A stretch of DNA of 64,000 nt from Thermoproteota archaeon. Its GTDB lineage: Archaea; Thermoproteota; EX4484-205; JAAOZP01. Both the position numbers and the translations under genes were made by a program. Positions 32,914-63,940 of the stretch are shown here, in pieces. Below the pieces are notes generated by a model. That model was not told where the DNA came from. It did no database searches and was given only the letters and a program-made list of their open reading frames with translations. Location: the NCBI GenBank assembly GCA_038848185.1, contig JAWCNV010000007.1, forward strand, positions 9,378-73,377. The letters are read 5' to 3'. Numbering within the stretch: position 1 is the stretch's first letter; each line of letters begins with the position of its first letter.

Positions 32914-33309
32914 ATGAGCCGGAAGAAACTTATCTACGTTATTCAAAAACACGCGGCAACGCATCTCCACTATGATCTCAGGCTTGAAATGGATGGTGTT
33001 CTGAAAAGCTGGGCTATTCCTAAGGAGCCTGAGGATAAGCCTGGTGCAAGGAGGCTGGCCATACAGGTTGAGGATCATCCTCTGGAATATGCCAGTTTTG
33101 AAGGATTCATTCCTGAAGGCCAATACGGTGCAGGGGAGGTTGAGAGATGGGATTTCGGGAACTATGAGCTTGTAAAAAAGACGGAGAGGAGTATAGAGGT
33201 TGAAATATATGGGAAACGCCTCAAGGGACGTTTCATCCTGATGAAATTTGAGAAAGCAGGAGGAAACGCTTGGCTCTTCTTTAAGAAGAAGAGCAGTGTC
33301 CGTGCTTAA
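32914..33309 (+). CDS. Stand-alone DNA ligase D 3'-phosphoesterase (LigD-PE) domain protein
   Basis: [32 protein letters not shown] matches the LigD PE core (H..HyDlRlE..GvL.SWAvPKGP). 131 aa, the right size for archaeal stand-alone PE proteins. Confidence 0.75.
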
Positions 33310-33445: not shown

Positions 33446-34459
33446 ATGGGTGGAGTAAGAATAATCGGAGAAAATTTGAAAAACATGCCTTGGCAGGATA
33501 AGCCTGAAGGTTATGAAGGCGTTATATGGAGGTATGATAAGAATCCTCTAACGAAGTGGAATCCTACTAAGAGCACTGCAAGAATATTCAATAGTGCGGT
33601 GGTCCCGTTTAAGAACAGGTTTGTAGGAGTTTTCAGGGCGGACCATAAGGACGGTAAAGCTAGGCTTCACGTGGGTTGGAGCGAAGACGGGGTTTCATGG
33701 GATATCGAGGACGAGGTGATAATGTGGAAGGATGAGAAGGGAGAAATATACCAGCCTAACTACGCTTACGACCCGAGGGTTGTTAAGATAGAGGACACCT
33801 ATTACATAACTTGGTGCACAGACTTCTTCGGCCCCACTATAGGAGTAGGTAGGACGAAGGATTTCAAAGAGTTCACCCGGCTTGAAAACGCTTTCCTCCC
33901 CTTCAATAGGAATGGTGTCCTATTCCCGAGGAAGGTCAATGGTAAATACTTAATGCTTTCAAGACCCAGCGATACTGGGCACACTCCTTTCGGAGACATC
34001 TTCCTGAGCGAAAGCCCTGACATGATTCACTGGGGGAGACACAGGAGGGTTATGGGTAGAGGAGGATCAGGATGGTGGCAGGGGCTTAAAATCGGAGCAG
34101 GCCCAATACCAATTGAAACAACAGAGGGTTGGCTGCTTTTCTACCATGGTGTGGTTCTTACGTGCAACGGTTATGTCTATAGCTGTGGGGCAGCAATACT
34201 AGACTTAAACACTCCCTCCAGGGTTCTATACAGGTGTAGAGACTACTTGTTGACGCCGGAGAAGGAGTATGAGACAGTAGGCTTTGTTCCCAACGTAGTT
34301 TTTCCGTGCGCAACCTTAACGGATGCGGAAAGTGGTAGAATCGCCCTGTACTATGGTTCTGCAGACACATATGTTTCACTGGCTTTTGCATATGTTGACG
34401 AAGTAGTGGACTACGTTAAAGAAAACGCGGAGCCGTTTCGCGAGGGAGAGGGAAGATAA
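33446..34459 (+). CDS. GH130 family glycoside phosphorylase (beta-1,4-mannoside phosphorylase-like)
   Basis: Five-bladed beta-propeller GH130 pattern (FNSAVVPF..RADH, YDPRVV..YYITW, LFPRKVNGKYLMLSRP, LFYHG, ALYYGSADT). Confidence 0.8.
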   Translation: MGGVRIIGENLKNMPWQDKPEGYEGVIWRYDKNPLTKWNPTKSTARIFNSAVVPFKNRFVGVFRADHKDGKARLHVGWSEDGVSWDIEDEVIMWKDEKGEIYQPNYAYDPRVVKIEDTYYITWCTDFFGPTIGVGRTKDFKEFTRLENAFLPFNRNGVLFPRKVNGKYLMLSRPSDTGHTPFGDIFLSESPDMIHWGRHRRVMGRGGSGWWQGLKIGAGPIPIETTEGWLLFYHGVVLTCNGYVYSCGAAILDLNTPSRVLYRCRDYLLTPEKEYETVGFVPNVVFPCATLTDAESGRIALYYGSADTYVSLAFAYVDEVVDYVKENAEPFREGEGR

Positions 34460-34532: not shown

Positions 34533-34850
34533 CTAGTTTTTTTCAATATTCTCTTGAGCCTCTCTAAGCCTAGATAAGAATATTCTCAAAGCATTAATCC
34601 CATCCGGGGTTAATACCAGAATTCTTGCCCTCAAATCCTCCCATGGTCGGTTAACCCTTATATAGTCTTTCTCCTCAAGAGCCTTCAGATGGTGTGCTAA
34701 TCGACCTGGTGAAAGACCAAGCCCCTCAGCAACCTCCGTAAACCTTGCCTTCCCCCTTACCGAAAGAAAAAGCATAACAGCTAATCTAACATTATCCCCT
34801 AATACTTCTCCTTCTTCAATTAGGCGTCTAATTTTCTCCTCTGGCTGCAT
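34533..34850 (-). CDS. ArsR/SmtB-like winged-helix transcriptional regulator
   Basis: 105 aa. HTH segment RLAVMLFLSVRGKARFTEVAEGLGLSPGRLAHHLKALEEKDYI. Confidence 0.65.
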   Translation of the reverse strand: MQPEEKIRRLIEEGEVLGDNVRLAVMLFLSVRGKARFTEVAEGLGLSPGRLAHHLKALEEKDYIRVNRPWEDLRARILVLTPDGINALRIFLSRLREAQENIEKN

Positions 34851-35550
34851 GAAGAATCCCTAGTGCTTTCTGCCTAGCTGACAGGATATACCAGACAGCA
34901 GTCACGAAATACGAGAAGGTTAAGTGGATGGAATTGATAATGTAAGGATAGAATTCTTCCGGAAGTAGCAGGTATGAGGGCAAAGTTAGAAGGAGGTAGA
35001 GGCATACGAAGAGTGGCCGGGGGTCAATTCTACGGGTTGCCCGAAACTCCCACAAGAAGGTGGCCATGTTCCCAAGGGAAACTCCCAGACTTACCATTAC
35101 TGCTATCCTTAGGGCAACTAACTCGGCAGGTATCACAACATTAGATATTACTGAGGAAAACAGAAATGCGAAAACCCAGAAAAGCATCGAAATATATTCT
35201 GTTTCTGGTTTTACCCTTTTTCCCTGAGCCTTAAACAACTCTAATGTTACACTTATTCTACTGATTATCATTACAGATAAACTGGCTACTGTGAAAGACG
35301 CTCCAAAGACAAGTATTACTAGGATGATCACCGGGGTTGATAGTTTGAAAACGGCCATTAGAAGCTCCGTCAGCATTCCTGCAAATAATGCTGCCGAAAG
35401 GTATAGTAGGTAAATAATGGCGCCTGAAACCTCTGAAAGCACTATCGCGTATGCTTCAACTATTCTGAAAAGATTTTTACTCATGCTTAGTATATCTAAA
35501 CAGATAATATAAATGTTTCTTAACTTTGGAAAACAAAGTAAACGAAGCAT
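34828..35550 (-). CDS. Integral membrane protein (6 TM), function unknown
   Basis: 240 aa, hydrophobic throughout. Overlaps the downstream ArsR-like gene by 23 nt, suggesting an operon. Confidence 0.5.
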   Translation of the reverse strand: MLRLLCFPKLRNIYIICLDILSMSKNLFRIVEAYAIVLSEVSGAIIYLLYLSAALFAGMLTELLMAVFKLSTPVIILVILVFGASFTVASLSVMIISRISVTLELFKAQGKRVKPETEYISMLFWVFAFLFSSVISNVVIPAELVALRIAVMVSLGVSLGNMATFLWEFRATRRIDPRPLFVCLYLLLTLPSYLLLPEEFYPYIINSIHLTFSYFVTAVWYILSARQKALGILHAARGEN

Positions 35551-35578
35551 TATAAACCTTCAAGTAGAAGCCTACAGC

Positions 35579-36358
35579 ATGAGCATAAGGTTGCAGAATG
35601 TATCTGCCAGATATTCAAGGGCAAGCATTCTCCATGATATTGATTTAGATTTAAACGGTAGAGACATAATCCTAGGTCCGAATGGCTCTGGCAAAACAAC
35701 GCTTTTCCGCACAATACTTGGAGTGAATGTGTATTCTGAGGGACACATAGAGATAGACGAGGTTGATGTTAAGAAGATAAAAAGCACTCCAGGAATATTG
35801 GCAACAAACCTCGACGAGGTTTATAATCTTCTGAGGATTCCAATAAGGAATGTGGCTAAGCTTTACCTTGAACTTGGTAAGGGAGATTTCTCAAGATTTC
35901 TAAGTATGGTTGAAGAATTTGAAGCATCCAGTGCTTTAAATAAGAGGCTTGATGAATTATCAGCTGGGCAGAGAAGAATCATGTGTAATCTTATCGCGCT
36001 GGCTATGAATACAAAGTATGTTCTCCTCGATGAACCTTTTGAAAACATGGATCCTGCTAGAAGGGTTAAGATGGCCAAGATTATCATAGATTGGGATGGG
36101 GGCATCATAATGAATACTCATGCAACATGGCTTCTCGATAAGTTTTCAGACTGGCAGGCTCACCTAATGTTTCATGGGAAAACATGTGAGCCTGTGAGGG
36201 TTAATGGCCTTCTGAACTCGAGAATAGTTGAAGGACAGAGAGAAGGTGCAATTAGTTTTACAATTAGAGAGAAAACGTTCTCACTAGTGTCTGGGAATCA
36301 AGGTATTTGCCTTACTGAAATGGAGAGTTTAGACCGTCTCTTCGAGGTGGGGTTGTGA
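35579..36358 (+). CDS. ABC transporter ATP-binding protein (ABC-2 type)
   Basis: Start moved to ATG 35579 (MSIRLQNV). Walker A GPNGSGKTT, signature LSAGQ, Walker B VLLDEP, H-loop NTHATW. Confidence 0.75.
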   Translation: MSIRLQNVSARYSRASILHDIDLDLNGRDIILGPNGSGKTTLFRTILGVNVYSEGHIEIDEVDVKKIKSTPGILATNLDEVYNLLRIPIRNVAKLYLELGKGDFSRFLSMVEEFEASSALNKRLDELSAGQRRIMCNLIALAMNTKYVLLDEPFENMDPARRVKMAKIIIDWDGGIIMNTHATWLLDKFSDWQAHLMFHGKTCEPVRVNGLLNSRIVEGQREGAISFTIREKTFSLVSGNQGICLTEMESLDRLFEVGL

Positions 36359-37182
36359 TGAGCATTCTTTTATTCAAAATGCTTTCGAAGGAAATGTTCA
36401 GGAACCCTTCTGCCTGGGGATGGGGTTTCTTCTTCGTCTCTTTCTGGATTATCATGGGGGCCTACATATTTAGTATTGAAATGCCTAAAGGTCTTCCTGC
36501 TGAAGCATATTTCTCCTACACGGGTAGCTGGTTCTCAATATCTCTAGTCTACAGTTTCTCGGCTCTTGCAGTAGGCATTGTTAATTCTTCATATTACTCA
36601 TCTTTCTCCCTAAGATATTTGACGAAATATTCTGCTCTCAATAATAAGCGTTACTACGCTGTGAGCCTGATTTCGACAGCCATGTTCTTCACGGTTTTCA
36701 CAATGCTCTTAGGAGTAGAGACATTTTTAATATATAGCTTTAGGTTCGGAGTCTTGCTGGCTCCCAAGAACCCTGTTGAACTGGCCTTAGCATCAATCTT
36801 ATCAGCATTATTCATATATGTGCTTTCAAGCTCCATAGCCTATTTAATCCTAGTTTTGAAGAGGCCGCGACTCGTCACCTTCGCATCCTTTCTACCCCTC
36901 GTTGTCTCCTACCCGCTTCTATTCCTACAACTATACCTTGACATAGGTTATGCCACAGTCCTATCCCCCTTTAACACGATTAACAGCCTCATCTACCGTT
37001 ATTACTCCGGAATCGAAGTGCCTAAGGGACCTCTATTTATTGGTAGTCAAGCCTCTGCAACAATAGATCCATTATACTTTTGGGCATCGCTTTTTTCATG
37101 GATTGTTTTACTCAGCATAATTAACATAATCCTGATAGGGAAGCAAAGGGGGGTCAGCGTAGAGGAACTCAGACAGTTTTGA
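36355..37182 (+). CDS. ABC-2 type transporter permease
   Basis: 275 aa, 6 TM. ATGA overlap with the ATPase gene. Confidence 0.6.
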   Translation: MMSILLFKMLSKEMFRNPSAWGWGFFFVSFWIIMGAYIFSIEMPKGLPAEAYFSYTGSWFSISLVYSFSALAVGIVNSSYYSSFSLRYLTKYSALNNKRYYAVSLISTAMFFTVFTMLLGVETFLIYSFRFGVLLAPKNPVELALASILSALFIYVLSSSIAYLILVLKRPRLVTFASFLPLVVSYPLLFLQLYLDIGYATVLSPFNTINSLIYRYYSGIEVPKGPLFIGSQASATIDPLYFWASLFSWIVLLSIINIILIGKQRGVSVEELRQF

Positions 37183-37410
37183 GCCGTCCACAGCAAGTCT
37201 GTCGACCAGACGCTCTACTCACCCCCTAGCGACAGTAAGCATATAGCTAGCGATATCACTCTCGACAGGTTTAAGCAGTAATTTTTTATTTAAAAGGCTT
37301 AAAAACCAGTGTTTCTGGTTTTAGATAGGGTTTTAAAGAGTTGTCCATAGTCTAAAAACCAAAAAATCTTAAATATTCTCCGTGATAAAATATATTCAAG
37401 GTAATCTTGA

Positions 37411-38835
37411 ATGACCCTCCCCTACGAATCCCGCCTCGGATACCGGTTACCAAGGTTTGAGATAAGTGGGGGAGCTAGCACGGCTTCAGAGCAAGACATA
37501 GCTTATTCTGAAGGAGTTTTCAGAAGTTTTCTAGAGCTTGAACATAGTAAATTGCTAATACCCCCTTTCTGCATCCTAAACGTTTTCGGCGGGGTTACAA
37601 CACTAGAAGCACAGAAATCTGCAGGAATACCCCTAGGGGCAATGGTTCAAGTGGTGCCGGTTGATGATGTTACAGTAACGCTTAGCGGTAAGCCTTCAGA
37701 TCTTTTAACCGTCTACTCTTGCGAGGTTCATGAAACGACCCACATGTACCAGATGAGCCATCTAGAGGTTATGAATAAGTATGTTACCACTGAAGTATTA
37801 ATCTACACTTTTAACTCTCTACTTAAGGCTGCAGCAGGACAAACAGCAGGCTCCTTGGAGTTGAGCGAAGGCAAGACGGCCCGAGGCTTGTCATTCGGCA
37901 GCATAGAGTTCAGAAAGCTGGCTACGGATATAAAGGAGGTATTCCCATACTTGCCTCTTAGAATTGACAGGGATAAGCTAGTTCTTTTAGAATCCTATCC
38001 TCTTTTGGTTCAAATGAGGTCTATGGAATTCCCTGAAGTCGATGTTCTTAAAAGCTCTGTGGAAGACCGTCTTAGGAGCAATATTAACACTAGTGTGATT
38101 AAAATACTAGGAGAAGACCCTAGTAAATCGCTTTATTCAGAAGCGATGGGGCTTGTATATAGTCTTCACGAGATGTTACCCAAGTCATACGTAACTCTAT
38201 TAGTTTACTCAAATTACTTGACTGGACTGGGGGCTCAGGGTCTTCTTGAGATGGCGCAGAAACTTGTCCATGATGAAAACAAGGTGAGAATCCTAGTAGG
38301 GGTTGAGAATGAGGTTGAGAGTGGTGGAGACCCTTTGACTTTAGCATTCGACCACGATGTTTTCAACTACGAGGATTTTGTAAAGCATAAAGAAAATCTT
38401 TTAGGAACAATTGGTGATGCTTTAAAAATATGCAACAGCGGTAAACCGTTTAACAGGCTCAACTATATTAAGAAAAAGATCGAAGGCATTAAAACACCAT
38501 CGGAACTCCGTTATCTGGCAGCAGGCTTTTCCCAAAACGTTTTCAGTCAGCGTTTGGCTGTTAATCAGCCTCCAACATACTATCTTCATGCTAACGGTGT
38601 TTCATACGATAAGGAGGAGGTAATGCTATTTAACTCTTTCTTTGCAGACTTGGCGATTACAGTTAATATCCTTAAAAATTTAATCGATGCATTAGAGAAA
38701 GGGCATGATGTGAGAAACACTATAAAAGGCTCTATACGCTGTCCACTTAAAAGGGCGCCGCAGATGAGATGTGCCTCAAGCTTTGAGTGTGAGCATGAGA
38801 AAAACTGGCTTGATACTATTTCGGGATCAGGGTAA
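37411..38835 (+). CDS. Orphan hypothetical protein with HExxHxxxxxH (metzincin-spaced) motif and C-terminal Cys cluster
   Basis: 474 aa, no family I recognise. CEVHETTHMYQMSH at about aa 103-116. C-terminal CPLKRAPQMRCASSFECEHEKNW. Bounded by a 228-bp upstream gap and a convergent uspA. Confidence 0.5.
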   Translation: MTLPYESRLGYRLPRFEISGGASTASEQDIAYSEGVFRSFLELEHSKLLIPPFCILNVFGGVTTLEAQKSAGIPLGAMVQVVPVDDVTVTLSGKPSDLLTVYSCEVHETTHMYQMSHLEVMNKYVTTEVLIYTFNSLLKAAAGQTAGSLELSEGKTARGLSFGSIEFRKLATDIKEVFPYLPLRIDRDKLVLLESYPLLVQMRSMEFPEVDVLKSSVEDRLRSNINTSVIKILGEDPSKSLYSEAMGLVYSLHEMLPKSYVTLLVYSNYLTGLGAQGLLEMAQKLVHDENKVRILVGVENEVESGGDPLTLAFDHDVFNYEDFVKHKENLLGTIGDALKICNSGKPFNRLNYIKKKIEGIKTPSELRYLAAGFSQNVFSQRLAVNQPPTYYLHANGVSYDKEEVMLFNSFFADLAITVNILKNLIDALEKGHDVRNTIKGSIRCPLKRAPQMRCASSFECEHEKNWLDTISGSG

Positions 38836-38929: not shown

Positions 38930-39388
38930 TTACCTAATTACGAGTACAGATCCTTTAAAATGGTTTATAACTCTGCTTGCAACGCTTCCGAGAATACGCC
39001 CTGATCTTCCAAATCCCTCTCCCCCAATAACTATAAGATCGTAGCCTCCTTTCTCCGCTTCTTCAACAATGATTGACGCGGGATCACCCATCCTGTTTAG
39101 CAGCTTTACTTTAACACCCATTTCTTCAGCAATTATTCTCGCTCTCTCCAGTATCTCATCCTTCTCCCTAATCATGCTCATCCTAGTAGAATCCGGGAGA
39201 ACTATTAGTTTGGAGGAATGTTCCACACTTGGCTCCACCATGGTTTTCGAAGGTGCTTCGGAAACATGTAGTACTGCTACCTCAATCTCCGGAGTCTGGA
39301 GCTTTAGCCTTAAAACGGTTTCAACAGCCTTCTCAGAGGTTGGAGAACCATCGGTTGCCACTAGAATCCTCCTGAACATCACCCCCAT
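38930..39388 (-). CDS. Universal stress protein (UspA family)
   Basis: ILVATDGSPTSEKA near the N-terminus, and C-terminal ATP-binding motif GYDLIVIGGEGFGRSGRILGSVASRV. Confidence 0.85.
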   Translation of the reverse strand: MGVMFRRILVATDGSPTSEKAVETVLRLKLQTPEIEVAVLHVSEAPSKTMVEPSVEHSSKLIVLPDSTRMSMIREKDEILERARIIAEEMGVKVKLLNRMGDPASIIVEEAEKGGYDLIVIGGEGFGRSGRILGSVASRVINHFKGSVLVIR

Positions 39389-39433: not shown

Positions 39434-40222
39434 TCAGGGGTTGAGAGTCACGCTGTAATAAGTTATGTTCCCGTTCTGGGCGGGGTTCCAAACAATTAGG
39501 CAGTTCAACCCAGTATCAACAGCCTTAAGGAACCCGGACCATTCACCGTCTTTCAACAAATAGTTCTCAATTTTCCCTTCCTCGTGGTAAACAGTCGCGA
39601 CAATAGGCTTGTCAGCAGGCTCCCACTTTATAACTATCTTTATGTTTTCGCCAGAAGGAAGGTAAAAACCACCGTAGAGTTGGCCGGTTAAGGGCTCAAG
39701 GGATCCTGACAAGGTTTCGTTCGCCTTAGGCTCGTGAGGTGTTTCAATTGTTTCTAAAACTGTTTTAAAACTTGAATCAGCATACGATAAATCTTCGAAA
39801 TGAAATCTTAAATCGACCGCGTAAGTCTTTTGCGAAAAATGTCCTCCTTTAACCTCAGTATAGTTTATGCGGAGAACATTATAGACATGGAAATCCCATG
39901 ACCTAATATATACGGTTTTATTGTATGCTTCAATTACTCGGGGAAGCTTCAATGGGAATACCTTTATGACAGCCTCTTTTGGCGAGACTGTGTTGCTTGG
40001 AGTTGAAATACTATAGGAGGCAATTATATTGCCATAAGGATTTTCTATAATGACGTAATCCGATGTCAACTCTACTATAAAGTCAGTAGACCCTAAATCT
40101 CCCGGAATAATTCTGAACTCAGATGCTTTAAGTAGCATTAGGGCCATAGAAATCATTATCAGCATTGAGAAGGATATTACTAGCACCAAGTTTCCGTTGA
40201 ACATCTTTATTGTTCTTTCCAT
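39434..40222 (-). CDS. Secreted/membrane-anchored hypothetical protein
   Basis: N-terminal TM/signal (LVLVISFSMLIMISMALMLL), then a beta-rich 230-aa ectodomain. No recognisable family. Confidence 0.45.
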   Translation of the reverse strand: MERTIKMFNGNLVLVISFSMLIMISMALMLLKASEFRIIPGDLGSTDFIVELTSDYVIIENPYGNIIASYSISTPSNTVSPKEAVIKVFPLKLPRVIEAYNKTVYIRSWDFHVYNVLRINYTEVKGGHFSQKTYAVDLRFHFEDLSYADSSFKTVLETIETPHEPKANETLSGSLEPLTGQLYGGFYLPSGENIKIVIKWEPADKPIVATVYHEEGKIENYLLKDGEWSGFLKAVDTGLNCLIVWNPAQNGNITYYSVTLNP

Positions 40223-40281
40223 TTATCGGGGAGTATTAAACGATAAATTCATTATTAAACATTTTTTACGAAACAATTTGC

Positions 40282-40636
40282 AATTATTCTGAAACGTGGC
40301 GGCGTTAGACAAAATGTCGCGGAGGGAAAGAGCATTTGTTTTTTTTTTAAAAAGGCGTGGTTTAATGAAAATCAAGATTTAAAGAAGGCTTTTCGGTTTC
40401 CGTCGGTTCTAAGACTAGTTGGTAGAGCCTCCAGTATTTTAAAATCACAACCATCTGAACTATGGATTCGCATTTTCTGTATGCATGGGACAGCAAGCCT
40501 TATGCGGCTCAGCATCTTTCTACAACTATAATCAGCTATCTCGAGCCCCAGAAAAATAATTAGGGTCAACCAGCCTATGTTAATAACTGATTAAGTCCCT
40601 AGCGGTAAAAATATTTTTCAAAATTATTCTGAAACG
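40282..40636. repeat. Perfect 16-bp direct repeat AATTATTCTGAAACGT (40282-40297 and 40621-40636) in a 580-bp divergent intergenic region
   Basis: Two identical copies 339 bp apart. Related ATTCTGAAA core also at 51866-51874 in another divergent intergenic region. Confidence 0.6.
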
Positions 40637-40802
40637 TTTTTTAAAAAATCTATGTTAAAAACACGTCTCTTTTGAACCGGAAATATACAGGGAAAACAAT
40701 ACGGCTTTAATCGAAGCTAAACCGTTCTTAAAAAGAATGGTGTGGGAAAAAGTCTTAGAGCGACATATAACGTAATAGTTATAAGCCCTTGGCGAGAATT
40801 CA

Positions 40803-50966: not shown

Positions 50967-51686
50967 CTAAATCATCTCCCTAAACATCTTCTGAATATTA
51001 GGTATTCCCATTCTCCTACATTCCTCAGGCATCAGATCACCCTCGGGACAGAAGCCTTTCATACATGATGGGCCCGCGTCTTTAAAAATAGTTGGAGCAA
51101 CCTTCTTCACCAGTTTCAACATTTCCATCCCTACCTCTCTCAGTTCCCATTGGGCTCTTGCGCAAAGCCTAAGGTTGAAGAAGTGCAGCAACTCCCTAGC
51201 GTTCATTGTTACAACTATGTTTGTCCTTGTAGCGTTAGGAAGTATGAATCTTGCATCCTCGTTCGACAACCCTTCTTTAACAAGCTCCTCATACCATTGG
51301 GCAATCGTCTTCATCCTTTCCTTAAACCGCTCCTCTTCACCGTTTCTAAGTGTCTTAGGAATAATAAACCAATCATCACTTGAAGTATTCACCTTCACAA
51401 ACCTTTGACTCTGCTGAGTATAGGATGCTACTCTATGCCTCACCAGCTGATGTGTACAGGCTCTGGAAACACCTTCTAGCGAGAATGTGAATGAAGCGTG
51501 TTCAATGGGTGAAAGATGGTTATGCCTCAATAGATCTGAAACCTCTTTCTTAATCTTCTCAGCATTCTCAGGCTTAGATAGTTTCGCAAGTATCTCCGTT
51601 GGCGTATCGCTTTTAAACGATGCCCTAGCAGCAACTGCAACTATAAGCTCCGGGTTTGGAGTGTGTGAGATTAGGGAAACCTTCAT
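50967..51686 (-). CDS. thyX: Flavin-dependent thymidylate synthase
   Basis: ThyX motif RHRVASYTQQSQR (RHRxxSxxxxSxR). 239 aa. Confidence 0.9.
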   Translation of the reverse strand: MKVSLISHTPNPELIVAVAARASFKSDTPTEILAKLSKPENAEKIKKEVSDLLRHNHLSPIEHASFTFSLEGVSRACTHQLVRHRVASYTQQSQRFVKVNTSSDDWFIIPKTLRNGEEERFKERMKTIAQWYEELVKEGLSNEDARFILPNATRTNIVVTMNARELLHFFNLRLCARAQWELREVGMEMLKLVKKVAPTIFKDAGPSCMKGFCPEGDLMPEECRRMGIPNIQKMFREMI

Positions 51687-52160: not shown

Positions 52161-52775
52161 ATGGAAAGCGAAAAAGATAAGGAGGCTGAAGAAGACAGGA
52201 CTGATTTTGACAAGATCATAGCACGCTACAGGATGGCGGCATCAAGACAGGATGCTGCAAAAACAGAGGAAAAGCGGCCGGTAATAATTGAGAAAACATC
52301 GATAACACCGATGGTGGAGAAGCCAGTTGTAAAGAAAGAGACTATACCTGTGGCTCAAAAACCCGCGTCGCGAGAAATCGTGACGAGCGAGGATGCTGAA
52401 AAATACTTTGAATGGGTTAAGGTTGTGGAGAGTGCAATACAGAATTGCCTTTCCCAGTCTAAGGGAGCCATAAACTCCATATATGTTCTACTGCCTGACG
52501 AGATAACTTGCCTAAGCTTCGGTTCACGCATCGACCTGGATGAAGATATTTTGGCAGCTTTCATAGGAGAACAGTTTGGATTATTTGAAAGCTACAGCGG
52601 TATTCTTCAAATAGGAGAGATAGAAGAGATAGAGTATACTGGAAAACAGAGTGTTGTCCTGATGAAATCTGGGAGTGGGTTGAGGCTTATGGCCCTGTTA
52701 AACGATAAGAGCTACACTAGGCTAGCCAAGATATACTTGGAGAGAATGCTGAAAAGCATTCCGAGATTCGAGTAG
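52161..52775 (+). CDS. Hypothetical protein with C-terminal Roadblock/LC7-like domain and charged low-complexity N-terminus
   Basis: The C-terminal 110 aa follow the Roadblock pattern (KGAINSIYVLLPDEI...ILQIGEIEEIEYTGKQSVVLMKSGSGLRLMALL). N-terminal 80 aa are K/E-rich. Confidence 0.4.
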   Translation: MESEKDKEAEEDRTDFDKIIARYRMAASRQDAAKTEEKRPVIIEKTSITPMVEKPVVKKETIPVAQKPASREIVTSEDAEKYFEWVKVVESAIQNCLSQSKGAINSIYVLLPDEITCLSFGSRIDLDEDILAAFIGEQFGLFESYSGILQIGEIEEIEYTGKQSVVLMKSGSGLRLMALLNDKSYTRLAKIYLERMLKSIPRFE

Positions 52776-58842: not shown

Positions 58843-60675
58843 ATGAGTGTAGAAAAGCCGCTGCTTGACTACGTTAATTCGCTTAAGCCGAGGAAGAGTT
58901 TCACAGAGTCTATCGATGCCTTTGAAATGTTGATTAAATACCATAGGAAGTATCTCCTACTCATAATAATTGTGGTAATTCTCTCCTTCCTAAGAACCTA
59001 CTTGTTTACGCTTGAACCCCTCTACACTTCTCTGATAATAGACGACGTGATTATAGGTGGGGAACACGAGATGCTGGTAAGCTATGTCACGATAATCCTG
59101 CTGGTAGGTGTAGGGTTTGCGGTAGTAAACTTTTTCATAAGTTACTTGAACGGTTTAATAGCACTACTCATCATACGTGATATAAGGTCAGACTACTATA
59201 CGTCTCTACAAGCAAAATCCTTCAGCTTCTATGACTCTGTGGCGGTCGGCGACCTAGTTTCAAGAGCCACAATGGATCTACAGCCCGTCGATGCTTTTCT
59301 ACGCAGCTGGGTCAGCACTTTATTTAATGCAATATTCTCAGTAATCATCTTCTTCTCAGTCATGTATTCGATCAGCCCCTCAATGACCCTTATCTCCCTA
59401 ATACCGATGCCCTTAATCTTCTATTTTACAACTAGGCTCTGGGTTGAAACGATGCCGCTTTTCAGAATCATGCAGCTTATACTTGGCAGGCTTAGCGCAT
59501 ATATTCAGCAGAACATTATAGGAATGAAGACGGTAAGAATATTTAGGAGAGAAAAGGATGTTGTTGAAGGCTTTAAGAAGGCTGAGCAAGTATTCGTTGA
59601 GACAGCCATAACCGCTGGAAGAATACAATCCATATATATGCCTCTTCCCACAGCGATACTAACTCTTTCAATAGCTATGGTTTACGTTTATGCTACACAC
59701 TCGATTTACAACGCTGGAGCTATGCTGACTGTCGGAAGCATAATACTTTTCGCCAGATACATGATGCGCCTAAGCTTCCCCTTGAGGGATTTGAGCATGC
59801 TGCTGGGAACATGGATCAACGCGTCCGCAGGGTTGGAGAGGATTTTTGAAATAATGGATGCTCCGAGAGGCGTTGAGGATAAGCCCGGTGCTGATGACAT
59901 AACTATAAGAAACGGTATGGTTGAATTCCAGAACGTAACCTTCCAGTATGCTAACGGCAAGCCGGTTTTAAGAAACATAAGTTTCAGAGTCAACCCGGGC
60001 GAGAAGATCGCTATCCTAGGCGCAACCGGTTCAGGCAAATCATCTCTAGTATATCTTATTCCAAGGTTTTACGACGTCACCTCTGGAAGCATACTAATAG
60101 ATGGTGTGGACGTTAGAAGATTTAAACTATCCTCTTTAAGAAGACAGATAGGCATTGTTCCCCAAGACGTCTTCCTTTTCTCCGGAACAATCAAAGACAA
60201 CATTACTTTCGGAAAGCCGAATGCCTCAATGGAGGAGGTTGTTAAGGCTGCGGAGCTAGCTAAGATACGTGACTTCATAGAGTCTTTACCAGAGGGCTAT
60301 GATACTTTCGTCGGCGAGAGAGGAGTCACTCTTTCAGGAGGCCAGAGGCAGAGGATAACTATTGCTAGGGCAATACTGACAGACCCTAAGATACTTATAA
60401 TGGATGATTCATTATCCTTTGTAGATTCTAAGACTGAGCAAGAGATACAGTCTGCTATTGAGGAAGTGATTAAGGGAAGAACGACATTCATAATTGCGCA
60501 GAGACTGTCAACCATAAGAAACGCGGACAGGATAATGATTCTTGAGGATGGTGAGATTATCGAGTTCGGAACGCATGAAGAACTCATGGCTAGAGACGGG
60601 GCCTACAGGAGGATTTACGAGACTCAGTTCCTAGGTAAGGGTTTGGAAATCCTTTCCGCGGAGGTGGGTAAATAA
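58843..60675 (+). CDS. ABC exporter, fused TMD-NBD half-transporter (MsbA/type I exporter family)
   Basis: 6-TM domain then Walker A GATGSGKSS, LSGGQRQRI, IMDDSLSFVD, H-loop IAQRL. Confidence 0.85.
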   Translation: MSVEKPLLDYVNSLKPRKSFTESIDAFEMLIKYHRKYLLLIIIVVILSFLRTYLFTLEPLYTSLIIDDVIIGGEHEMLVSYVTIILLVGVGFAVVNFFISYLNGLIALLIIRDIRSDYYTSLQAKSFSFYDSVAVGDLVSRATMDLQPVDAFLRSWVSTLFNAIFSVIIFFSVMYSISPSMTLISLIPMPLIFYFTTRLWVETMPLFRIMQLILGRLSAYIQQNIIGMKTVRIFRREKDVVEGFKKAEQVFVETAITAGRIQSIYMPLPTAILTLSIAMVYVYATHSIYNAGAMLTVGSIILFARYMMRLSFPLRDLSMLLGTWINASAGLERIFEIMDAPRGVEDKPGADDITIRNGMVEFQNVTFQYANGKPVLRNISFRVNPGEKIAILGATGSGKSSLVYLIPRFYDVTSGSILIDGVDVRRFKLSSLRRQIGIVPQDVFLFSGTIKDNITFGKPNASMEEVVKAAELAKIRDFIESLPEGYDTFVGERGVTLSGGQRQRITIARAILTDPKILIMDDSLSFVDSKTEQEIQSAIEEVIKGRTTFIIAQRLSTIRNADRIMILEDGEIIEFGTHEELMARDGAYRRIYETQFLGKGLEILSAEVGK

Positions 60676-60677
60676 TA

Positions 60678-61739
60678 ATGTCAGGTCCATGGCGCACATT
60701 TTCATCAACTCAGGAGGAAGAAAGAAAGAGAACTACTCCAGACAGAATATTGATTAGGAGGCTTTATAAATATGTTAAGCCGTTCAGGAGGAATCTTGCG
60801 ATCGCAACCCTAGCGATAGTTCTAACTTCCATAACTGGATTAGCTTCACCCTACATGCATAAGGTGGCGATAGACCAGATAATACAGACTGGAAACCTTT
60901 CCAACTTTATATGGTGGATCCCGCTGTTCATACTGGTTGTCCTATGCAACTTCTTCTTCCAATATGTGCAGATATTCCAAATGAGGATAATTGGTGAAAA
61001 CGTTGTTTCACTCATAAGGGATGAGATTATGGAAAAACTCCAAATCATTTCCCTAAGATATTTTTCAGAGGGCGAGATAGGCAGAATAATCTCCAGACCC
61101 ATAAACGATGCGAATAATCTCAGGATATTTCTTAGAATGGGGTTTACCAGCATACTTCTCGACACCTCCTCCATATTGGGCACTTTCATCATCATGTTTA
61201 TGCTGGATTTCGAGCTGTCCGCCATAGCTTTATCCTTCATTCCTCTAGCCATCGCTATAATCTGGTTGCTTGGAAAATACTCCAGGAAAGTTTATAGAAA
61301 AACCCTTTCAACTCTAGCTGGTTTAACTGCGAGGATGCAGGAAGACCTGTCTGGAATAAAAATTACTCAAGCGTTCGTGCAGGAGGAGAAGGTGAGAAGG
61401 AGGTTCGAGGAAACTCAGGAGGAGAATCTTAAGGCGAATAAGAATGCGTTAAAAATATCCTCAGTCTACCAGCCAGTGGTCATCATAACAAGGATAATCG
61501 GGACGTTGATAATACTTTGGTATGGGACGATTTTTGTTGAAAGTGGAGCCATAACAATAGGCACTTTAGTAGCTTTCATAGAATACCAGTTCTCATACTT
61601 CATGCCGCTTGTAGATCTGGTGAATATTTCAGACCAATATAACTCTGCAATGGCTGCAGTCGAAAGGCTTTTCGACCTTATTGACACTAAGGTTGAGGTT
61701 GAGGAGCCTCCTCCTGAAATAGCGGTTGAACTAAAATGA
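60678..61739 (+). CDS. ABC exporter transmembrane domain (partner half, TMD only)
   Basis: 353 aa, 6 TM type-I exporter fold. Ends at the ATGA overlap with the next gene. Confidence 0.75.
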   Translation: MSGPWRTFSSTQEEERKRTTPDRILIRRLYKYVKPFRRNLAIATLAIVLTSITGLASPYMHKVAIDQIIQTGNLSNFIWWIPLFILVVLCNFFFQYVQIFQMRIIGENVVSLIRDEIMEKLQIISLRYFSEGEIGRIISRPINDANNLRIFLRMGFTSILLDTSSILGTFIIMFMLDFELSAIALSFIPLAIAIIWLLGKYSRKVYRKTLSTLAGLTARMQEDLSGIKITQAFVQEEKVRRRFEETQEENLKANKNALKISSVYQPVVIITRIIGTLIILWYGTIFVESGAITIGTLVAFIEYQFSYFMPLVDLVNISDQYNSAMAAVERLFDLIDTKVEVEEPPPEIAVELK

Positions 61740-62479
61740 TAGAAGAAGTAAGATTTGAGAACGTTACTTTCGGATATGACCCGGAGACCCCTGTTATAAG
61801 GGACATTAGTTTCACGCTTACACGCGGAAAGAAACTAGCTATAGTTGGGCCTACTGGCGCTGGGAAATCAACGATAATCAACTTGCTATCAAGATTTTAC
61901 GATCCTGACGAGGGCAGGATCCTTGTAAACAATACTGATTTAAAAAACATTCCAATCCTATCTTGGAGAGCAAGACTTAGCATAGTTCTCCAAGACTCCT
62001 TCCTTTTTCCAATGAGCGTGAAGGAGAACATAAGGTTTGGAAAACCTGATGCTTCAGACGAAGAGGTTGTTTCTGCCGCGAAAACCGTTGGGGCCCACGA
62101 GTTCATAATAAAGCTTCCTAACGGATATAACTACATGATACAAGAAGGATCCTCAAATATCTCCATCGGGCAGAGGCAGATGATAAGCTTCGCGAGAACC
62201 CTGTTGGCTAACCCAGAGATACTTGTTCTAGATGAGGCAACCTCCTCAGTCGACCCTTATACTGAGCTGGTTATACAGAGAGCTTTAAAGAAGCTTTTAA
62301 TGGGTAGGATGGCGATCATAATAGCTCACAGGCTTTCAACGATACGTCTGTGCGATGAAATACTGGTAATCAACAACGGGGTCATCGTGGAAAAAGGTAC
62401 CCATGAGGAGTTGATGCAGAAAGGAGGGTTATACAGCTCTTTCTACAGGCTCCAATTCATAGAGGAAAAAGGTTTCTAA
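61736..62479 (+). CDS. ABC exporter nucleotide-binding domain (partner half, NBD only)
   Basis: Walker A GPTGAGKST, signature ISIGQRQMI (degenerate), LVLDEATSSVD, H-loop IAHRL. Confidence 0.8.
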   Translation: MIEEVRFENVTFGYDPETPVIRDISFTLTRGKKLAIVGPTGAGKSTIINLLSRFYDPDEGRILVNNTDLKNIPILSWRARLSIVLQDSFLFPMSVKENIRFGKPDASDEEVVSAAKTVGAHEFIIKLPNGYNYMIQEGSSNISIGQRQMISFARTLLANPEILVLDEATSSVDPYTELVIQRALKKLLMGRMAIIIAHRLSTIRLCDEILVINNGVIVEKGTHEELMQKGGLYSSFYRLQFIEEKGF

Positions 62480-62563
62480 ACCCCTATTAACCTGAGCAAC
62501 CAGTTTGAGGAAACGCATCGAAAAATTTTAAAAACAGGTTTCAAAAATCCTGTCCATAAGGAG

Positions 62564-63940
62564 GTGCCTTCCTTGAGTGGAGTCAGGGAGATCTCTGAGT
62601 CTCTGCGGGAATGGGAAAGGATTGCAGCACACTCCCATATAACAGGCCTAGGCTTAGAAGGATTAAAAGCTAAGCCTGTTGCAAGCGGTATGGTAGGCCA
62701 AGTCGAGGCGAGAGAGGCGGCGGGCATTGTGGTACGGTTAATAAAAGAAGGAAAGTTTGCAGGAAGAGCCGTATTGCTCGCAGGGCCTCCGGGAACCGGA
62801 AAGACGGCAATTGCTACCGCCATAGCGAGAGAACTCGGTAGAGATGTTCCATTTGTACCATTAGCAGCAAGCGAAATATTCTCTGCGGATATTAAGAAGA
62901 CAGAGTTCCTAATGCAAACCCTTAGGAAAGCGATAGGAGCAAGGATACATGAAGTTAGAAAGATTTACGAGGGGGAAGTTAAGGAAGTCTCTATAGAGAA
63001 GGCTCCCCATCCATATAACCCTTATCAACAGATACCTGCAGGGGCAACGATAAAGATTGCGACCACTGATGAGTCCAAGAGACTTACGATGGACCAGAGT
63101 TTTGCAACCCAACTCATACAGCAGGGCATAGAGACAGGCGACATCGTTCAGATAGATCCTGAAGGAGGCAGAATTGTTAAACTTGGGAAGAGTAGGAAGA
63201 GTGTTGAAGATAAGAAGGTTGACCTCTCTACATCCCAGGTTCTGGATGTTCCGAACGGTAATGTTCTTAAGGAGAAGGAGTTTGTCTACCCTGTCACACT
63301 CTATGCTCTCGATATGGCTGCAGCTAGACGGGGAGGAGACATATTCAGCATATTCTTCGGTGGAAGAGAATCAAAAGAAATAGAGCCTGAGACCAGGAGG
63401 GAGGTGGATGAATACGTAAAGACACTGGTTCAAGAAGGCAGGTGCGAGCTTCTTCCAGGCGTGGTGTTTATAGATGAATGTAGTATGCTTGACATAGAGA
63501 CTTTCGCGTTTCTCAACAGGGCACTGGAGCAGGAGCTTGCTCCAATAATAATATTTGCAACGAACAGAGGCTTCTCCACAGTAAGAGGAACGGACATGAG
63601 GGCCCCCCACGGAATGCCTCTAGACCTTCTCGATAGGCTTTTAATAATAAACACGAAGCCATATGGCAGGGACGAGATCAGAAGGATTCTGGAAATAAGG
63701 GCGGAGGCTGAGAAGATCCCGATAAGTAAGGAAGCTGTGGAGTATTTGACTGAAATAGGCGTTAACACAAGCCTTAGATATGCTGTTCAGCTTATTGCTC
63801 CAGCGTTTGAACTGGCTAAGGAGAGAAAGGCGGATAGAATAGAGAAGGATCATGTAAGCTATGTTGAGAAGCTCTTTGTTGACGTTAAGAAATCCGTTGA
63901 ATATCTTCGAGAGTATGAGAAACAGTTCCTTGACCTTTAG
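62564..63940 (+). CDS. RuvB-like AAA+ ATPase TIP49 (Pontin/Reptin homolog)
   Basis: Walker A GPPGTGKTA, inserted OB-like domain II (aa 120-280), Walker B VFIDECSMLD, sensor/arginine finger region FATNRG. Confidence 0.85.
   Translation: MPSLSGVREISESLREWERIAAHSHITGLGLEGLKAKPVASGMVGQVEAREAAGIVVRLIKEGKFAGRAVLLAGPPGTGKTAIATAIARELGRDVPFVPLAASEIFSADIKKTEFLMQTLRKAIGARIHEVRKIYEGEVKEVSIEKAPHPYNPYQQIPAGATIKIATTDESKRLTMDQSFATQLIQQGIETGDIVQIDPEGGRIVKLGKSRKSVEDKKVDLSTSQVLDVPNGNVLKEKEFVYPVTLYALDMAAARRGGDIFSIFFGGRESKEIEPETRREVDEYVKTLVQEGRCELLPGVVFIDECSMLDIETFAFLNRALEQELAPIIIFATNRGFSTVRGTDMRAPHGMPLDLLDRLLIINTKPYGRDEIRRILEIRAEAEKIPISKEAVEYLTEIGVNTSLRYAVQLIAPAFELAKERKADRIEKDHVSYVEKLFVDVKKSVEYLREYEKQFLDL

Follow-up and report, generated by a model that had tools for sequence, protein, structure and literature searches.

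We analysed an open reading frame (ORF) for a 474-amino-acid (474-aa) protein in a 64,000-nt stretch of a Thermoproteota archaeon genome (assembly GCA_038848185.1, contig JAWCNV010000007.1), hereafter the window, whose numbering is used unless another locus is named. An earlier note, made from the letters alone, had described this ORF as an orphan in which HETTHMYQMSH follows the spacing of the metzincin zinc site and a C-terminal Cys cluster offers a second potential metal site. The ORF had been called correctly, as had H107, H111 and H117 (HETTHMYQMSH spans residues 107–117, nt 37729–37761), and the Cys cluster, CPLKRAPQMRCASSFECEHE, occupies residues 444–463. The absence of a transmembrane segment or hydrophobic N-terminus was confirmed (top 19-residue Kyte-Doolittle mean of 1.49), and the product can reasonably be read as a cytoplasmic metal-binding protein. 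The features of the gene are listed below.

37411..38835 (+): coding sequence of 474 aa (ORF call), a member of the Usp-adjacent paralogue clade, in which every sequence has the motif Glu (HE), of a family apparently restricted to Brockarchaeota
37363..37379 (+): promoter element AAAATCTTAAATATTCT (BRE/TATA-like), with a 13-nt core, AAATCTTAAATAT, ending 35 nt before the ATG
37453..37833 (+): N-terminal beta/alpha module, aa 15–141, from DSSP of the model
37729..37761 (+): motif H107-E108-T-T-H111-M-Y-Q114-M-S-H117, on and at the end of helix 95–116
37780..37794 (+): Y124...E128, a candidate polarising or stabilising Tyr and a candidate third metal ligand (E128, putative in this role), spaced i/i+4 on helix 118–141
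37903..38733 (+): all-helical body, aa 165–441, of about 14 helices and one beta-hairpin (375–394), carrying R349, P363, Y391, S409, D413 and I416
37984..38013 (+): patch L192-L193-E194...Q201 on helix 187–206, with L192, L193 and E194 invariant
38740..38808 (+): C-terminal Cys3-His knuckle C444-P-x4-P450-x-M452-x-C454-x5-C460-x-H462-E463-x2-W466, its loop non-helical in the model

The gene is real and is not an orphan. Its product is identical (100 %) to QW304_05555, a protein annotated as hypothetical in a Thermoproteota metagenome-assembled genome (MAG), and 32 further homologues with 44–90 % identity are encoded in MAGs of Candidatus Brockarchaeota and of related 'Thermoproteota'; beyond these 33 close homologues there are more distant ones, and each genome holds two to four paralogues. 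HMMER searching had been proposed in the earlier note; run exhaustively over 1.84 billion representatives, it added only a small clade of 25–30 % identical proteins from JGI metagenomes. The family was found in 5 of 185,579 species-representative genomes, all five of them Brockarchaeota with 2–4 copies each, and it appears to be restricted to this group and one related uncultured lineage. Altogether, 54 full-length homologues were gathered, which fall into three Brockarchaeota paralogue clades and one distant clade. In a neighbour-joining tree the Brockarchaeota clades correspond to genes adjoining Usp (the clade of the window), HMG-CoA reductase and Thy1, and the distant clade forms the fourth group. 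Loci carrying family members are denoted L0xx below and individual member proteins P00xx. With a dN/dS of 0.096 at a dS of 0.55 against the ortholog in L030 (90 % protein identity), the gene is under strong purifying selection. A mobile-element or viral origin was considered and rejected, as no relatives were present in IMG/VR or among GenBank phages.

Conservation was counted over the 54 full-length sequences, 53 of which have the C-terminus. H107, H111, Y124, E128, L192, L193, E194, R349, P363, Y391, S409, D413, I416, C444 and P445 are invariant (54/54), and C454, C460, H462, E463 and W466 are found in 53/53 sequences with the C-terminus; the invariant positions, more than 20 in number, are spread over many helices. 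The HExxH noted earlier is a conserved feature, with both His invariant and E108 kept throughout the window's clade and the most distant clade; over the whole set E108 is present in 41 sequences and replaced by Gly in 13. Gln occupies position 114 in 52/54 (the other two have His and Glu, one each, and Gly never occurs), Q201 is likewise present in 52/54, and H117 is kept in 50/54, with Arg in the remaining four. Conserved too is the C-terminal Cys cluster, in the form C444-x9-C454-x5-C460-x-H462, whereas C341 does not belong to this site, being Leu in 19/54. Homologues down to 25 % identity keep the His pair, Y124, E128, other polar residues and the CCCH set, and the number of invariant polar residues suggests an active site. 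When the window protein was shuffled, HExxHx5H arose in 0.04 % of the shuffles (4e-4) and HExxH in 1.8 %; the longer motif is beyond chance.

Fragments of the family were also seen. A 92-aa ORF at L029 1103–1381, lying among transposase genes, consists of the last helix and the CCCH knuckle only and is probably the remnant of a disrupted copy; cluster members of 59–92 aa (P0042, P0046–P0049, P0053 and P0058) may be similar fragments.

An AlphaFold2 model built with 38 sequences reached a pLDDT of 85.8 and a pTM of 0.89, with pLDDT values of 90–96 across residues 81–140; secondary structure was taken from DSSP. In the model the N-terminal module runs from a strand (15–18) through a helix (28–48), a second strand (53–58) and a poorly predicted segment to a hairpin (80–85/88–93), followed by helix 95–116, which carries HExxH and Q114, and helix 118–141, which carries Y124 and E128 on one face, one turn apart. 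Gln114 is predicted to share a helical face with H107 and H111 (i, i+4, i+7). H117 is the lone non-helical residue between the two helices and, because the first of them runs on to residue 116, would lie about 9 Å of helical rise beyond H111, at the helix junction. The modelled C-terminus consists of a non-helical Cys loop (442–460) and a final helix. Zincin catalytic domains follow the order strand, backing helix, strands, motif helix and second helix (PMC9848320). The predicted N-terminal element order of the window protein appears to resemble a zincin N-subdomain with a 'glutamate helix', as a resemblance and not a match.

Two other structural ideas were rejected. Internal duplication into two zincin-like lobes was not supported: when the N-terminal, middle and C-terminal thirds were aligned with hhalign, the probabilities reached at most 1 %. 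A terpene synthase, suggested by the paralogue beside HMG-CoA reductase and by weak Foldseek hits to prenyl synthases, was discarded since the hits had E values of 3–7 and the protein has no Asp-rich motif.

The replacement of the motif Glu follows the paralogue tree. All 13 sequences with Gly (HG) belong to the HMG-CoA-reductase-adjacent clade; every sequence of the window's clade and of the distant one is HE. The HG sequences form two groups in the tree, each sister to a Glu-keeping sequence (P0017 and P0025), and the motif Glu was therefore lost at least twice in this clade. The earlier note had named homologues lacking the HExxH residues as an argument against a zincin; HGxxH does exist in 13/54 sequences, but all of these are in one sister clade and none in the window's own. 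Every species-representative Brockarchaeota genome (5/5) carries at least one HE copy of the window type and at least one HG copy, and the HE and HG genes lie about 20–27 kb apart and not in one operon.

Inside the 64-kb window there is no second paralogue. Its end, at 58843–63940 (ABC, ABC-membrane, ABC and TIP49-like ATPase genes), is colinear with L007 971–6039, and we therefore expect an HG-type paralogue, with a phosphatase gene and HMG-CoA reductase before it, about 2 kb past the right end. In L010 a third paralogue (P0027 type) is placed between Thy1 and a 211-aa gene. The window has homologues of both, Thy1 at 50967–51686 (−) and the 211-aa gene at 52161–52775 (+; 78 % identity), and the 474-bp gap between them holds neither a gene remnant nor a remnant of the promoter motif. 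The HMG-CoA-reductase-adjacent paralogue is usually followed by genes for a 105-aa protein, a 401-aa MoxR-like AAA+ ATPase (AAA_5 and AAA_lid_2) and a 573-aa protein (L004 9514–12751; L007 9553–12847; L009 1123–4348 and 7684–8329). In L009 this trio now stands on the other side of HMG-CoA reductase, and its former position is marked by fragmentary pseudogene remnants of the 573-aa gene. An operon link of the family to the MoxR-like AAA+ trio was rejected, as the trio accompanies only this paralogue and the arrangement is broken in L009.

A further property shared by the paralogues is their promoter. A 17-nt element, AAAATCTTAAATAT(T/C)CT, precedes every family gene in the three Brockarchaeota clades, and its core ends about 35–37 nt before the ATG. 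It was located at L001–L010, L015–L025 and L030 (the locus of the 90 % identical ortholog), about 35–50 nt upstream of the family genes, and in the window it lies inside the 228-bp gap upstream of the gene. With at most one mismatch, the 13-nt core has 23 matches in 372 kb of Brockarchaeota DNA, 22 of them directly upstream of family genes and one elsewhere; it occurs once in the 64-kb window, where the count at two mismatches equals the chance expectation. The element looks like a BRE/TATA promoter. Its base-for-base retention, in paralogues whose proteins share only 45–50 % identity, implies selection beyond ordinary promoter function. The shared element probably reflects co-regulation of the paralogues, and it points to a regulator dedicated to the family or to some special kind of promoter. 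Rfam and terminator/promoter scans of the flanks of the family gene found nothing.

Two observations concern the same upstream regions. The TTG annotated as the start of P0027 (L010 5962–6000) is probably not the true one: with an in-frame ATG located 39 nt farther upstream, the protein gains the N-terminus of the family (MSFRWVSPALKYRLPRFE...) and the promoter lies at the usual 37-nt distance. A second stretch, TTTATTTAAAAGGCTTAAAAA, at window positions 37283–37305 is conserved with L030 and may be an oligo-T signal that terminates the upstream ABC genes, or else a different regulatory site.

From these patterns we infer metal binding, a ligand set, hydrolase chemistry and a pairing of the paralogues. 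A divergent zinc enzyme, broadly taken, is plausible, and the invariance pattern favours a gluzincin-like H107/H111/E128 site with Y124 on the adjacent helix over a metzincin triad. In such a site HETTH (107–111) lies within helix 95–116, with E108 kept in the window and distant clades, and the 'glutamate helix' would be helix 118–141, whose invariant E128 follows H111 by 17 residues and, judged from helix-hairpin geometry in the model, should come near the His pair. We tentatively propose that the protein is a new kind of zincin-like metallohydrolase, which combines a gluzincin-type site with a structural Cys3-His knuckle and acts with a degenerate paralogue, a reading to which we assign a probability of roughly 0.35. 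The window protein would then be the cytoplasmic, intact-motif member of the family with two metal sites. H107 and H111 on helix 95–116 and E128 on the next helix would hold the catalytic metal, Y124 and Q114 would line the site, and E108 would be the general base. A substrate chamber would be formed by the large helical body, to which E194, Q201, R349, Y391, S409 and D413 belong, and the C-terminal knuckle would hold the second, structural metal. The intact-motif protein would probably act together with the co-occurring Glu-less paralogue as an active/degenerate pair.

Several results weigh against this proposal. As the earlier note had stated, no family can be recognised: Pfam and NCBIfam gave none at E≤10 for the protein and 38 family members, a sequence search of PDB gave no hit, and profile searches of PDB, with the full-length family and with the N-terminal 136 residues, found no peptidase, their sole results being a spurious designed-PPR summation and CTP synthase at E 0.05. 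PADLOC, run with the other scans on the protein, its paralogues and the 38 members, found nothing. Minimal zincins with HExxHx5H (WLM/Wss1, SprT-like and DUF45) gave no Pfam hit, and there was no profile match to a compact catalytic domain of about 150 aa. Aligned with hhalign to thermolysin and astacin, the N-terminal profile matched over the motif alone, at about 1 % probability. A Foldseek comparison of the model, a check the earlier note had proposed for a zincin fold, returned nothing from PDB or BFVD at E<0.5, zincin or otherwise. In the HG paralogues all the other invariant residues are retained, and E108 therefore cannot be essential to whatever they do. Within the window, the gene has no operon partner that points to a substrate.

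The conservation of the HG paralogues leads to one alternative, a metal-dependent enzyme other than a peptidase, such as a nuclease or another hydrolase, which uses a His cluster of H107 and H111, with or without H117, and does not need the motif Glu, as in YbeY. Retention of the other invariant residues in HG proteins makes E108-independent chemistry plausible, and many of the invariant polar residues lie away from the motif. However, no Pfam or NCBIfam hit to UPF0054/YbeY or to nuclease families was obtained, the YbeY structure 1tvi appeared in Foldseek only at noise level (E 6.8, TM 0.16), and E108 is strictly kept in two clades that include the oldest split. We consider this explanation unlikely.

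A second alternative is a non-catalytic scaffold, sensor or regulator, a pseudo-zincin whose His pair and CCCH set are structural or sense metal or redox state. The repeated E-to-G changes tolerated in the paralogue would fit such a role, as would the conserved neighbours of the gene, which in the window, L001 and L030 include a Usp stress-protein gene and a winged-helix gene of DUF7343/TrmB-like type, and the tightly conserved promoter suggests dedicated regulation. Yet a scaffold would usually need less than 474 residues with so many invariant positions over many helices, and a DNA-binding domain was not detected in the window protein. The Usp/DUF7343 neighbourhood may reflect nothing but synteny inside one phylum, and the upstream neighbours vary. 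Such a role seems doubtful to us.

It is also conceivable that the Cys3-His set binds an iron-sulfur cluster and not zinc, possibly near the His pair, in a redox or radical enzyme of anaerobes. Three Cys and one His are invariant, and the hosts are anaerobic hot-spring archaea (PMC8065059). Neither Fer4 nor radical SAM was matched in the Pfam and NCBIfam searches, and C341, the only other well-conserved Cys, is the residue so often replaced by Leu. We know of no iron-sulfur motif with the spacing C-x9-C-x5-C-x-H, a further point against this very unlikely option. The knuckle does not correspond to a CCCH zinc finger (C-x6-14-C-x4-5-C-x3-H) either: its C-x9-C-x5-C-x1-H spacing is different, and zf-CCCH gave no hit.

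In metzincins the motif is HEXXHXXGXXH/D; its Gly lets the chain turn, the C-terminal subdomain supplies the third His ligand, and a Met-turn lies beneath the metal. Their catalytic domain is made of a five-stranded sheet, a backing helix, an active-site helix and a C-terminal helix (PMC9848320). The analogy drawn by the earlier note, a true metzincin-type protease with zinc held by H107, H111 and H117 and Gln in place of Gly, has in its favour the exact H-E-x-x-H-x5-H spacing and the presence of H117 in 50/54 sequences, but it is already largely refuted and can be set aside as extremely improbable: position 114 is never Gly, the model helix goes on through 114–116 without turning, H117 is Arg in four sequences whereas E128 is invariant, there is no Met-turn candidate (the only Met columns at ≥50 % are M121, in 33/54 and helical, and M452, in 50/54 and 335 residues downstream in the Cys loop), and no sequence or fold match to metzincins was obtained.

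Members of the distant clade are found in a different setting. There the family gene is the third and last gene, C, of a tight module with A (290–370 aa) and B (240–255 aa), present on four contigs (L012 4646–8196 and 11729–14343, where it is duplicated; L013 3764–6966; L014 6161–9356; L028 987–4264). Neither A nor B has Pfam or PDB relatives, and P0035 is a fusion of C with the N-terminal ~115 residues of B. A ThiF (E1) gene adjoins the module on 4/4 contigs, and on the three longer ones the ThiF operon consists of genes for a 485–591-aa unknown protein, a 74-aa ubiquitin-like protein (Ubl) ending in LGG, a 117–124-aa E2/RWD-like protein, a JAB/JAMM protein with the motif H-x-H-x7-S-x2-D and a short ThiF E1. 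The Ubl operon was located as follows.

L013 7115–10207 (−): Ubl operon
L012 311–3773 (−): Ubl operon
L014 9503–11053 (−): Ubl operon
L028 4413–4835 (−): ThiF alone visible

Its orientation relative to the module varies, an inversion separating L012 from L013, and the adjacency may be mere synteny. Taken at its boldest, the family would open a clan of its own among zincin-like metalloenzymes, with an overall fold not seen before. It would act as a co-regulated active/degenerate pair in Brockarchaeota and, in the sister lineage, as the third subunit of an A-B-C module, where fusion of B to the enzyme occurs and the adjacent Ubl-E2-JAB-E1 genes hint at an archaeal protease tied to ubiquitin-like tagging; as a whole, we regard this extended proposal as quite unlikely.

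Around the window gene the earlier note had named the neighbours correctly: an ArsR-type winged-helix gene, an ABC ATPase and a hydrophobic protein upstream and a convergent Usp gene downstream.

34533–34850 (−): ArsR-type winged-helix gene
between this gene and the ABC ATPase in the neighbour list: 240-aa membrane protein
35513–36358: ABC ATPase
36355–37182: hydrophobic 275-aa protein, upstream of the family gene
38930–39388 (−): Usp gene, convergent with the family gene

The description of the flanking gaps as unusually long was right for the upstream one, whose 228 bp rank third among about 31 gaps between 33 and 64 kb of the window (our own count from the ORF lists), but not for the downstream one, whose 94 bp are ordinary for convergent genes. 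In the window's clade the conserved block comprises the family gene (+), Usp (−), a 260-aa protein (−) and the DUF7343 winged-helix gene (+); the Usp and DUF7343/TrmB-like genes are kept in the window, L001 and L030, and the genes upstream of the family gene differ between genomes. A functional link to the upstream ArsR/ABC cassette was rejected, as only the closest relatives (L030) have the cassette and other genes take its place in L001. Beside Usp, a 262-aa protein with an N-terminal hydrophobic segment (39434–40222, −) is 35 % identical to its L001 neighbour and has no Pfam hit. The longest intergenic gap of the region (40223–40802; 580 bp, GC ~0.36) precedes the divergent DUF7343/TrmB-like gene. 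Farther upstream, a stand-alone 131-aa LigD 3′-phosphoesterase domain protein adjoins a GH130 mannoside phosphorylase (32914–33309 and 33446–34459), a pair also found in L030.

Should the metal-site reading be true, the protein would represent a previously undescribed zincin-type enzyme family, in an architecture without a solved relative, and would add to the metallopeptidase catalogue both a new scaffold and a natural example of an active/degenerate paralogue pair. The family is confined, as far as the searches reach, to a recently recognised archaeal phylum, in which it is duplicated and carries a strikingly conserved promoter, and its distant clade is a lead to the partners A and B beside an archaeal ubiquitin-like conjugation operon. 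Should the reading fail, this would be one of many conserved hypotheticals, with the lesson that a protein can carry a perfect HExxHx5H string without being a metzincin.

Compared with known systems, the window protein shares with metzincins the spacing of the three His and the Glu, and differs in having Gln for Gly on an unbroken helix, a variable third His, no Met-turn and no predicted five-stranded sheet, and in being cytoplasmic. Archaemetzincins (MEROPS M54) combine the metzincin motif with a following Cys4 zinc finger. Like them, the window protein is archaeal and cytoplasmic and has an HExxH-type motif and a second Cys-rich site with a conserved Met (here M452), but its Cys cluster is 330 residues away and Cys3-His instead of Cys4, and the protein is far larger, with no Pfam peptidase hit at E≤10. 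YbeY/UPF0054 proteins are metal-dependent RNases of about 150 aa with the motif HGxLHxxGxxH; their His are spaced as in the window protein, and the HG paralogues resemble them in having no motif Glu, whereas the window family gives no sequence hit to them and the 1tvi match is noise. Gluzincins, both thermolysin-like and 'minigluzincin', likewise place HExxH in a long helix that comes after a beta-hairpin and an earlier strand-helix-strand, and E128, invariant on the next helix 17 residues after the second His and with a Tyr one turn before it, would match their Glu ligand. The His-to-Glu spacing in M1 and M4 is longer. In contrast to gluzincins, the window protein has no detectable sequence or Foldseek similarity to them, and its module is set within a 330-residue helical body with a CCCH knuckle. 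TldD/TldE, MPP alpha/beta and Rpn11/Rpn8 are active/degenerate pairs of metallopeptidase paralogues. They belong to families unrelated to this one, whose HE and HG genes occupy separate loci and whose products are a putative pair; what is common to all is that in each genome the motif is intact in one copy, and another lacks the catalytic-type residue and keeps the rest, here under a common promoter element.

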